The position numbers and the translations under genes were made by a program. The notes beneath the pieces are model-generated. The model searched no databases. It was not told the origin of the DNA and saw only the letters and a list, made by a program, of their open reading frames with translations. From Nautiliaceae bacterium (GTDB lineage: Bacteria > Campylobacterota > Campylobacteria > Campylobacterales > Nautiliaceae), in assembly GCA_039831155.1 (NCBI GenBank), contig JBDONT010000029.1:27071-91070 (forward strand): a stretch of 64,000 nt of DNA, given 5' to 3'. How positions within the stretch are numbered: the stretch's first letter is position 1; each line of letters begins with the position of its first letter. Positions 26,452 to 58,507 of this stretch are shown piece after piece.

Positions 26452-27725
26452 TGAGGTTTTTATTACTTCTTTTCTCTTTTATATTTATCTTTGCTTGTAA
26501 TACTTCATCAATAAATAAAGCATATACCGAATATTATAATTATCAAAAAAAATATATTTCGGCTCTTTTAGATAACAATAAACAAGCCCAAATAAAATAT
26601 TTAAAAGAGATGATAGAGTGCGGAGAATTTTTACATTTAAATATTACCGATTATAAAAAAAAGTTACAAAGTTTATCAAAAACATATAAACCGGTTAAAA
26701 ATTATCCGACACTTTCAAAACATATTAAAATACTCTCTTATAATCCTATAAAAATCAAACTTCCTTCAAACCAAGTTACTTTTTTTACTTCCGAATATAA
26801 ACTCTATAAAAAAGTCTTTGACATCAAAAATGCCGCTATACATAAATTTATAACAAAAAAACTTAAAAGTAATATTATTCTAAAAATCGCCCAATTTAAT
26901 AAAAATACGGTAAGAATCGTTTTATATTCGAAATATAAATTCAGAATTAAGTACCGAATAAAAAATAATTTACTTACTATTTCCATCATATCCTATCAAA
27001 AAAACTTACCCGGCCAACTTTCCGCCGTATCTTTTAAACCTATAAAAAAGCATAAAAAAGTAATCGTAATAGACCCGGGACACGGCGGAAAAGATGCTGG
27101 AGGAGTAGGAATTAAACATAGAATGGAAAAAGAAGCCGTTTTAAAAATAGCGAAATATTTAAAAATTTATCTTCAAAGCCAAGGATATATAGTATATCTC
27201 ACAAGAAAAGGAGATTATTTTATTCCTTTAAAAAAAAGAACTCATTTCGCAAATATAAAAAAAGCGGATTTATTTATATCCATTCACTGCAATATAGCTC
27301 CTAGACATTATAAAAAACCTCACGGAATAGAAACTTACTTTTTATCTCCTACTAGAAACGAAAGAGCTATTCAAGTAGCCAGAACGGAAAACAAAGAGAT
27401 AAAAGGTCTAAATTATTTAGACCAAAGAGTAATTTTAAATTTTTTAAATAGAGACAGAATGATTAATTCAAACAAACTAGCGATAGACATTCAAAAAGGT
27501 ATGTTACTGTCTTTAAGAAAAAAATATTCTCGAATAAAAGACGGAGGAGTAAGACCAGCTCCCTTTTGGGTACTAGTTGGTACTCAAATGCCGGCTATTT
27601 TAATAGAAACGGGTTACCTTACAAACCCTTTAGAATCAAAAAGACTTTTTAATCCCGAATATCAAAAAAACTTAGCTAAAGGAATAGCCGAGGGTATAAA
27701 AAGCTATTTTAAAAAAAACCCTTAA
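26451..27725 (+). CDS. amiA: N-acetylmuramoyl-L-alanine amidase
   Basis: IDPGHGGKD, EK, FISIHCN, PAILIETGY. Confidence 0.92.
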   Translation: MRFLLLLFSFIFIFACNTSSINKAYTEYYNYQKKYISALLDNNKQAQIKYLKEMIECGEFLHLNITDYKKKLQSLSKTYKPVKNYPTLSKHIKILSYNPIKIKLPSNQVTFFTSEYKLYKKVFDIKNAAIHKFITKKLKSNIILKIAQFNKNTVRIVLYSKYKFRIKYRIKNNLLTISIISYQKNLPGQLSAVSFKPIKKHKKVIVIDPGHGGKDAGGVGIKHRMEKEAVLKIAKYLKIYLQSQGYIVYLTRKGDYFIPLKKRTHFANIKKADLFISIHCNIAPRHYKKPHGIETYFLSPTRNERAIQVARTENKEIKGLNYLDQRVILNFLNRDRMINSNKLAIDIQKGMLLSLRKKYSRIKDGGVRPAPFWVLVGTQMPAILIETGYLTNPLESKRLFNPEYQKNLAKGIAEGIKSYFKKNP

Positions 27726-57208: not shown

Positions 57209-57463
57209 ATGAAAACAATTTACGTAGGAAATATTAACTATCAAGCAACTGAAGAAGACTTAAAACCGTTATTCTCAGAATATGGTGAAGTACTTTCAGT
57301 TAAAATAATAAACGACAGAGAAACAGGAAGAAGCAAAGGTTTCGGATTTATCGAAATGGAAAGTGGAGCTGAAACTGCTATTGAAGAACTTGACGGAAAA
57401 GAGTTCCAAGGCAGAAGACTTAGAGTTAACGAAGCAAGACCAAGAGCTCCTAGAGAATTTTAA
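57209..57463 (+). CDS. RRM-type RNA-binding protein
   Basis: RNP2 IYVGNI, RNP1 KGFGFIEM, LRVNEARPR. Confidence 0.95.
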   Translation: MKTIYVGNINYQATEEDLKPLFSEYGEVLSVKIINDRETGRSKGFGFIEMESGAETAIEELDGKEFQGRRLRVNEARPRAPREF

Positions 57464-57478: not shown

Positions 57479-57820
57479 TTATTTCATAATACCGGTTAAA
57501 ACACAATCCACTTTTATATAACTCATAGAATTATCAGTGGTAGTCACTACTAAAATATCACTCTCATTACTTGTAATGTTTTTATAAACTTTACCTAAAA
57601 AAGAATCAAACTCAAACAAAGAAATATCATCACTCACTTCAAAATGAAGTAAAAAACCTCTTGCAATATGATGAAAATTACTAAAAAGTTTTTCATACGC
57701 CTCTTCAAAATCCTCTGCTTTAACACTCTTTATAAAAGCAAAACCTTCGTATTTTAAAATTAAATTAACATCCTCTAACGTTAAATTAGAATTTTTTTGC
57801 AAAATAGAAATCAAATCCAA
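57479..57820 (-). CDS. Stand-alone FtsZ C-terminal-domain-like protein
   Basis: NLTLEDV, ARGFLLHF, SLFE, TTTDNSM and VDCVLTGI are collinear with FtsZ CTD motifs. Confidence 0.65.
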   Translation of the reverse strand: MDLISILQKNSNLTLEDVNLILKYEGFAFIKSVKAEDFEEAYEKLFSNFHHIARGFLLHFEVSDDISLFEFDSFLGKVYKNITSNESDILVVTTTDNSMSYIKVDCVLTGIMK

Positions 57821-57887
57821 AGAGAAACCTTTTTTTACGAATTTTATAATAATTATTAAAAAAAATAAATCTCTCTAAGGAAAACTA

Positions 57888-58507
57888 TCAATTTATAAGC
57901 TCAAACTTATTTTTTCTTTATTGTAGTTATAAACTTCTCCACTCTCTATTACGTAATACCACCCTATCAAATTAAGTTTTCCACTTTTAACCCTCTCTTT
58001 TACAAAAGGATAAGTCATTAGATTATCAAGCTGCTTTACTATATTTAACTGTTCGGCTTTCCAACTTCTCAATTTAATATCTTTTATATCAATTACGGCC
58101 TCTTTTACATCATACACAAGTTCAAGCCATTTTTTAACAAAAGGAAGTGCGTTTAATTTTTCTTCCGGATAAAAAAGAGCCTTTAAGCCTCCACAATTAC
58201 TATGCCCACACACCAATATGTTCTCAACCTCCAAATACTTAACTGCACATTCAAGAATAGAAGCACTACACTTATAAGTACCGTCATTAATCTCATAAGG
58301 AGGAATAATATTTGCAATGTTTCTTAATACGAACACTTCTCCCGGCATTGTGTTAGTAATTAAATTAGGCACAATTCTGCTATCACTGCAACCTATATAA
58401 AAAGTATGCGGCTTTTGACCTTCTTTAAGTTCTTCAAACAACTCTCTGTTTTTTTCAAAATCTTCATTTTAAAAATCAATTACCCCTTTAAAAAGTTTTT
58501 CATTCAT
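57888..58507 (-). pseudogene. Beta-class carbonic anhydrase, disrupted
   Basis: GCSDSR, RNIAN, GHSNCGG intact; in-frame TAA at codon 13 (58469-58471); probable 1-nt loss in the A6 run at 57910-57915. Confidence 0.75.

Follow-up and report, generated by a model that had tools for sequence, protein, structure and literature searches.

A stand-alone homologue of the FtsZ T7 loop and C-terminal subdomain in a Nautiliaceae bacterium

The genome of a Nautiliaceae bacterium (Campylobacterota; assembly GCA_039831155.1, contig JBDONT010000029.1) contains a small open reading frame (ORF) that encodes a true homologue, beyond chance, of the T7 loop and C-terminal subdomain of FtsZ. The ORF lies on the minus strand at 57479..57820 of a 64,000-nucleotide stretch (forward-strand positions 27,071 to 91,070 of the contig), called the window here, and starts with TTG. 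Its product of 113 residues is an FtsZ paralogue consisting of the T7 loop, helix H8 and the C-terminal subdomain, and it is a folded protein under purifying selection. Sequence, profile and fold comparisons agree on this identity, as an earlier note made from the letters alone had proposed by calling it a stand-alone FtsZ C-terminal (GTPase-activating) domain. The protein belongs to a rare, previously undescribed family in hydrothermal-vent Campylobacterota. The source genome (G000) comprises 1.53 Mb in 43 contigs and is 96.7% complete, the window being C2:27071-91070 in our contig numbering. The features of the gene are:

57479..57820, minus strand: ORF for the stand-alone FtsZ T7 loop and C-terminal subdomain, stop codon included (ORF listing, profile and fold matches)
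57828..57832, minus strand: Shine-Dalgarno-like AAAGG, 7 nt 5' of the TTG start (read from the sequence)
57770..57787, minus strand: T7-loop equivalent N-L-T-L-E-D, codons 12-17 (aligned with E. coli-type FtsZ chains and with the FtsZ of the same genome)
57488..57745, minus strand: C-terminal subdomain S7-H9-S8-H10-S9-S10, four strands and two helices, codons 26-111 (DSSP of the structural model)

Sequence homology to FtsZ

In a six-frame search of 61 related genomes, residues 4-112 of the window protein match the FtsZ of its own genome, a 368-residue protein whose gene adjoins ftsA, with an expectation value (E) of 1.9e-8 and 37% identity; a pairwise alignment gives 40 identities over 112 aligned positions (36%). 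The NCBIfam ftsZ model (TIGR00065) aligns residues 7-111 with model positions 208-324 of 353 (E 4.3e-5), and Pfam FtsZ_C (PF12327) covers residues 52-111 (E 8.1e-5). With 23 bits against a TIGR00065 cut-off of 295.2, the protein is not FtsZ proper. The Pfam search, which the earlier note had named as a check, returned a significant E value, but its 23.3 bits lie below the gathering score of 27 bits. According to a three-way alignment with its own FtsZ, the window protein begins at the end of helix H7, includes the T7 loop and stops three residues past the last strand, where the FtsZ linker begins, while its own FtsZ continues for about 45 residues. The GTPase domain, the linker and the C-terminal peptide are therefore all absent from it. 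These alignments bear out the earlier description of a frame collinear with the second half of FtsZ that lacks both the GTP-binding domain and the C-terminal tail.

The T7 motif of the window protein, N12-L-T-L-E-D17, corresponds to N-x-D-F-x-D in FtsZ. The asparagine and the last aspartate are present and the middle aspartate is a threonine, just as had been read from the sequence, so that the window copy lacks the both-aspartate N-x-D-x-x-D pattern of the T7 (synergy) loop. Across the 40 rows of the family alignment, column 12 is asparagine in 31, column 14 is aspartate in 28 and threonine in 4, and column 17 is aspartate in every row. The column of L68, occupied by leucine in 29 of the 40 rows, aligns with the second leucine of D-L-R-L-D-E-F in E. 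coli FtsZ, presumably L272, a residue of the bottom face involved in polymerisation. PMC7010359 does no more than list an L178E/L272E construct. FtsZ C-domains reach 78-92 bits with a profile of the short family.

A word-index search with the window protein returned only its own cluster, and phmmer against 1.84 billion representatives returned five proteins at E <= 0.001, among them P0004 (2031 residues, with five stretches). A phmmer search of the PDB reached FtsZ chains at E 0.7-0.9 only, ranked under an unrelated top match, and was useful for alignment alone. A split FtsZ was considered as well and rejected: there is no partner in the genome that consists of the N-terminal domain only, and the tubulin-type GTPase domain (PF00091) has a single match there, in the real ftsZ.

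Predicted fold

An AlphaFold2 model built from the 40-row family alignment has a predicted local distance difference test score (pLDDT) of 89.4 and a predicted template-modelling score of 0.82. The order of its elements is H-H-E-H-E-H-E-E, and DSSP assigns strands to residues 29-35, 55-62, 88-95 and 102-109 and helices to residues 38-46 and 68-81 of the subdomain. The model thus contains H8, S7, H9, S8, H10, S9 and S10, the elements of the tubulin/FtsZ C-domain fold. In the PDB, Foldseek returned 110 matches at E <= 0.001; each of the best 50 of these 110, which were listed, is an FtsZ, and among the matches listed the query-normalised template-modelling scores range from 0.63 to 0.79 with a best E of 7.6e-8. 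This is the outcome expected from the AlphaFold and Foldseek check put forward in the earlier note. VIA-align likewise places FtsZ first (Z 11.7 over 109 residues, root-mean-square deviation 2.7), followed by two CetZ chains (10.5 and 10.1), Pseudomonas FtsZ (9.6) and TubZ (8.2). The window protein is thus homologous to and collinear with the T7 loop and C-terminal domain (PF12327) of FtsZ, from where H7 ends as far as the last strand, and shares their fold. It differs from them in being a separate protein of 113 residues and in the threonine at the middle T7 aspartate.

Orthologue, selection and a second paralogue

An intact orthologue, 93% identical, is found in another genome of the same genus (G005), in the same context of pepD, carbonic anhydrase and RRM genes. 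Both the TTG start and the AAAGG sequence, to which the earlier note had drawn attention as a Shine-Dalgarno-like site of the gene's own, are retained there. The two copies differ by 11.5 synonymous and 8.5 non-synonymous changes, which corresponds to a ratio of non-synonymous to synonymous rates (dN/dS) of 0.155, a rough estimate from a single pair. The values of two flanking genes, 0.10-0.13, are similar. Because of the intact orthologue, the dN/dS of 0.16 and a family of 35 clusters, the window ORF is not a decaying fragment devoid of intact orthologues, a possibility that had been raised together with the original proposal.

The source genome encodes a second member of the family:

Contig C13:6489-6839 (locus L021, 2990-3340), plus strand, outside the window: second stand-alone FtsZ C-domain paralogue, 116 residues

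This paralogue reaches 30.5 bits with Pfam FtsZ_C, shares 34% identity with the window copy and has a complete T7 loop, N-L-D-F-N-D. It is flanked by glyS and an ion-channel gene, with a GmrSD-like pair adjacent. At the orthologous locus of G005, the C-terminal half alone is found, behind stop codons, as a pseudogene.

Family, distribution and origin

When 2776 candidates were searched with a profile built from nine short proteins, 35 clusters scored E <= 0.001; their members are typically 109-126 residues long. Most of these clusters have a precomputed PF12327 match, and the few named members are annotated as 'hypothetical protein' or 'FtsZ family protein' (Caminibacter pacificus, Nautilia lithotrophica); a 90-member cluster in the ESM Atlas carries no functional name either. 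Among 30 species genomes of the same bacterial family, short frames are present in five, namely G000 (twice), G005, G011, G020 and G023. FtsZ itself is found in 28 of the 30, the two misses being genomes of 55% and 70% completeness. The genus is represented by two complete genomes, G001 and G004, both of which lack the gene, and in G001 an amidase gene follows the carbonic-anhydrase gene at the equivalent place. The family is accessory and turning over; the window lineage is nonetheless maintained.

A maximum-likelihood tree was calculated from 38 short proteins and 23 FtsZ C-domains, all distinct after removal of duplicates, omitting the cluster of the window protein itself, that of its paralogue, one 70-residue fragment and P0004. 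FtsZ is split from the short proteins at a support of 94/92, and 37 short rows form one clade (100/97) that lies inside no FtsZ subgroup; the 174-residue P0005 stands beside FtsZ. The short-family profile scores FtsZ C-domains of the own bacterial family at 65-76 bits (20 of 20) and those of other families at 50-60 bits (three of three), while an approximately unbiased test in which the three FtsZs of other families were held together gave p = 0.087. On the simplest reading of these comparisons, the short proteins would have arisen once, when an ftsZ of the Nautiliaceae type lost its GTPase domain. Sulfurimonas-like bacteria have a second group of short FtsZ_C proteins, which are longer, with 142-198 residues. 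In P0117 (198 residues, from a metagenome), the T7 loop and C-domain follow almost directly on a stub of the FtsZ glycine box, which points to an FtsZ that lost the bulk of its GTPase domain by internal deletion and to a possible intermediate toward the short forms. The other matches in the search for such longer forms are apparent FtsZ fragments from short contigs.

Genomic context of the relatives

The surroundings of the family were surveyed in 17 metagenome loci and several genome loci, some of which are near-copies of each other (L057/L070, L077/L078), so that the following counts are not independent. A gene for a PcfJ-like protein (about 395 residues; Pfam PcfJ E 1.1e-6; zinc-ribbon N-terminus) lies immediately upstream of the FtsZ_C-like gene in eight loci, with overlapping stop and start codons (L057 in G011, L064, L065, L068, L070, L071, L073 and L075). 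A calcineurin-like phosphoesterase of 182 residues, which matches the PADLOC candidate PDC-S10 (E 5.5e-16), is encoded immediately downstream in seven loci (L063-L069). The conserved order of this cassette is PcfJ-like, FtsZ_C-like, calcineurin-like phosphoesterase.

Regulators of the helix-turn-helix-WYL-WCX type are found in seven family loci and abut the FtsZ_C-like gene divergently in three of them. Further neighbours are PD-(D/E)XK nucleases that match the PADLOC candidate PDC-S26 (E 2e-48; four loci), GmrSD-like pairs (three loci, including that of the second paralogue), a patatin-like (phospholipase) effector and, at one locus, a RecA/DnaB-like ATPase with a YAcAr SLOG protein upstream. 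The island in G011 lies beside a cluster of transfer RNA (tRNA) genes, and in two members of the family the reading frame runs into a tRNA gene.

The longer form has different company in Sulfurimonas (L084, 2896-8888), where an N-terminally extended FtsZ_C protein of 169 residues begins at the stop codon of a double-AAA+ ATPase of 701 residues that matches PADLOC IetA (E 1.2e-44). Downstream of it follow a 438-residue AAA+ ATPase with weak PADLOC matches to REase_II and IetA and an ORF of 430 residues without a PADLOC match, which we take to be McrB/McrC-like; the FtsZ_C gene and that of the IetA-like ATPase may be a separate two-gene conflict module. PADLOC-DB 2.0 contains no family for the window protein, its paralogue, or the G011, Sulfurimonas and PcfJ-like proteins, the matches being confined to neighbours (PDC-S26, PDC-S10, IetA, WYL and the phospholipase effector). 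For 'PcfJ', the literature search returned only the pCFJ plasmids of C. elegans.

Proposed action on FtsZ

In FtsZ filaments, a subunit uses its T7 face to dock onto the next subunit's GTP-bearing top face, and the C-domain with its T7 loop serves as GTPase-activating protein ('GAP') for that next subunit. According to PMC11157280, filaments elongate from their C-domain-exposing end, and the two domains, N- and C-terminal, are independent and able to reconstitute non-covalently. The tentative proposal that we favour, with chances a little below even, is that the window protein would act as a sequesterer or cap that docks on FtsZ at its nucleotide face and damps the assembly of the Z-ring. Such docking is suggested because D17 is invariant and the equivalent of the bottom-face leucine is mostly kept.

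As a first step, the window protein would bind the nucleotide (GTP) face of FtsZ through its own T7 face. Once bound, it would offer no site to the next subunit, as it lacks a nucleotide domain. GTP-FtsZ monomers would thus be sequestered from the growing, C-domain-exposing end, and the opposite, shrinking end would be capped. Since the top face of an incoming monomer binds the filament at its bottom end, a free C-domain would not block the growing end, and the predicted action is chiefly sequestration of monomers together with a cap at the non-growing end, which refines the 'cap' or depolymeriser suggested in the earlier note. As a final step, Z-ring assembly would be damped or arrested. In most relatives, the gene lies in presumably co-transcribed island cassettes near WYL-type regulators, and this arrangement suggests, by analogy, that such cassettes might be triggered by stress, phage or DNA damage. 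The window copy stands alone behind a carbonic-anhydrase gene and has diverged; off the cassette and with T14 in place of the middle aspartate, it may bind FtsZ without stimulating GTP hydrolysis.

Several observations weigh against an inhibitor of host FtsZ. Because the sister paralogue is a pseudogene in G005 and the family is present in only five of 30 genomes, the function is dispensable. The branch that leads to the pair formed by the window copy and its orthologue is long (1.13 changes per column in the maximum-likelihood tree); together with the missing middle T7 aspartate and the sub-threshold Pfam score, this may reflect drift from the ancestral role. The face of the beta-sheet that is packed on H7 in full FtsZ would here be unshielded and could bind something else. 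The window copy has no cassette partners, and a search of the source genome returned no PcfJ-like match. A comparison of WYL-adjacent intergenic regions with the region upstream of the window gene revealed only A-rich 8-9-mers and the ribosome-binding site in common. The neighbours of the family are defence or mobile-element genes and not division genes, which fits a conflict role without any inhibition of host FtsZ. Finally, the source genome already encodes MinC.

Alternative explanations

The strongest competitor, which we regard as unlikely but still to be taken seriously, is that the family is a component of conflict systems. The short proteins would then be FtsZ-derived decoys or sensors that present the bottom face and C-domain and bind phage or plasmid proteins targeting FtsZ, or adaptors or effectors for their operon partners, i.e., the PcfJ-like protein and the metallophosphoesterase or, in Sulfurimonas, the IetA-like AAA+ ATPase. 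The window copy would be an orphan that has retained the decoy role or was re-used. The cassette itself speaks for this explanation, with the PcfJ-like gene upstream in eight loci and the PDC-S10-matching phosphoesterase downstream in seven, as do the WYL regulators (seven loci), PD-(D/E)XK nucleases (four), GmrSD-like pairs (three) and patatin-like effector of the family loci, the 169-residue Sulfurimonas protein that starts at the stop codon of the IetA-like ATPase, and a patchy distribution (five of 30 genomes) in which some members abut tRNA genes. There is also a precedent in a defence protein that senses a phage inhibitor only when the latter is in complex with FtsZ, as reported in PMC13423816.

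A conflict role is difficult to reconcile with other results. Neither the FtsZ_C-like protein nor its PcfJ-like partner has any PADLOC match, the window protein has no match in PHROG, and none of 96 pattern stretches in viral contigs was confirmed as a relative. The near-copy loci overstate the independence of the context counts. In the source genome, the phosphoesterase and its 199-residue neighbour sit after dnaE on another contig without the cassette; L064 was inspected for an insertion of the PcfJ-like and FtsZ_C-like genes between dnaE and the phosphoesterase, and the gene upstream there is not dnaE. The window copy and that of G023 both stand among housekeeping genes.

A broader idea, which joins the inhibitor proposal with the conflict role, is rather doubtful in our judgement: Campylobacterota may repeatedly have cut FtsZ down to the half with the T7 loop and C-domain inside immune or mobile cassettes, which would provide a self-derived mimic of the polymer interface, and the window gene would be a domesticated division regulator. 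The product would either freeze division by occupying FtsZ at its GTP face, as an effector in the style of abortive infection, or trap or sense FtsZ-directed phage proteins as a decoy. Both cassette forms could be accommodated, i.e., PcfJ-like, FtsZ_C and phosphoesterase near a WYL gene, and an IetA-like ATPase followed by FtsZ_C.

It is quite improbable that the fold was re-used for a purpose unrelated to FtsZ, such as the binding of a ligand or of another protein by an alpha/beta arrangement like that of Rid/YjgF. The long branch of the window lineage would be in line with re-use, and Rid/YjgF and related chains appear in the VIA-align list at Z 5-6. These rows stand far below the tubulin family, which reaches Z 8.2-11.7 compared with at most 6.1 for the Rid/YjgF type; in between and below lie tubulins (5.6-7.6) and human gamma-tubulin (4.7). 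The list also contains PDB 3c8l from Nostoc punctiforme, an 'FtsZ-like protein of unknown function' of 119 residues, which is likewise small and stand-alone and has a related alpha/beta arrangement. It aligns with the window protein over 82 residues at 5% identity with a Z of 4.8 (rank 37), a value typical of common arrangements, and kinship between the two is not shown. Re-use is at odds with the 36-37% identity to the own FtsZ, which persists, and with the T7 aspartate that is kept in all 40 rows; to our knowledge, this residue has no role beyond the FtsZ interface. That the ORF is merely still open, left over without function from a decayed island or from a partial duplication of ftsZ, would agree with the loss of the N-terminal half of the sister paralogue in G005, an early TAA in the carbonic-anhydrase gene of the window and the absence of the gene from G001 and G004, but is very improbable in view of the dN/dS of 0.155 with 11.5 synonymous changes, the frame, start and Shine-Dalgarno sequence intact in two species, the confident fold prediction and the constant length of the family (109-126 residues).

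Comparison with known systems and significance

The two halves of FtsZ have long been regarded as independent modules. The search of full-text literature, with supplements outside its scope, brought up no description of an FtsZ C-domain that stands alone as a protein. The closest counterparts are the truncated paralogues of Hyphomicrobiales, Agrobacterium FtsZ1 and FtsZ3, which are also extra, non-essential and derived from FtsZ and are thought to tune division. According to a preprint (bioRxiv 10.1101/2025.09.29.679267), overexpression of FtsZ1 inhibits division, and both paralogues retain the GTPase part, whereas the window family retains only the half without it. Relative to the truncated FtsZ paralogues studied so far, the truncation is thus inverted.

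The inhibitor proposal also resembles the action of three small proteins to which the window protein bears no relation in sequence or fold. SulA and MciZ bind FtsZ at its bottom face or on the side of the C-domain, and the complex of SulA with FtsZ (1ofu) is among the Foldseek matches listed. Like T7 Gp0.4 (PMC13423816), they occupy a longitudinal face of FtsZ and block assembly; the window protein would instead use the own interface of FtsZ and target the top face.

The presence of WYL-type regulators near a small candidate division inhibitor in seven family loci recalls the DriD-didA checkpoint, from which the window copy differs in having no adjoining WYL gene. DidA is unrelated, a membrane protein whose action is on late proteins of the divisome. 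In Caulobacter, the WYL activator DriD drives the division inhibitor gene didA (PMC9186387 and PMC4211646). The source genome has no LexA match at the family cut-off. We know of no classical SOS/SulA checkpoint in Campylobacterota.

A natural stand-alone C-domain maintained by selection provides a tool to ask whether half of the longitudinal interface caps, sequesters or activates FtsZ, and it also bears on the polarity of treadmilling. Through the defence-island cassettes with WYL-type regulators, the family ties the division machinery to conflict with phages and plasmids. If binding to FtsZ holds true, the window protein would be the first inhibitor made from FtsZ itself.

Gene neighbourhood in the window

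In accordance with the absence of an ftsA or ddl context mentioned in the earlier note, the genes 5' of the ORF on the same strand are pepD and a beta-carbonic-anhydrase gene, and a gene for an RRM RNA-binding protein is convergent on it. The remaining features are:

57862..57891, minus strand: between the ORF and the carbonic-anhydrase gene, a weak match to a sigma-70-like promoter (consensus scan agreeing at 9 of 12 positions)
57209-57463, plus strand: gene for the RRM RNA-binding protein, 84 residues, convergent on the FtsZ_C-like ORF

The promoter scan of the region yielded nine sites compared with 6.6 +/- 2.4 in shuffled sequences, which is no evidence of function, and the terminator scan was likewise uninformative. 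The RRM gene has a high word depth in contigs of hydrothermal-vent metatranscriptomes from three runs (two samples). Contigs from two runs of one sample extend beyond the RRM stop codon by about 150 nt, to 57618 and 57625, with ambiguous strand; this cover corresponds to the last ~147 nt of the FtsZ_C-like ORF, leaves 57626-57820 uncovered and is uninformative on expression of the ORF either way.

The carbonic-anhydrase gene of the window (57893-58500, minus strand) contains an in-frame TAA about 14 codons into the orthologous frame, where G005 reads AAA. Near its 3' end, an A-run is one base shorter than in G005, which alters the last residues. The window thus contains either a broken carbonic-anhydrase gene or assembly errors at these two places.

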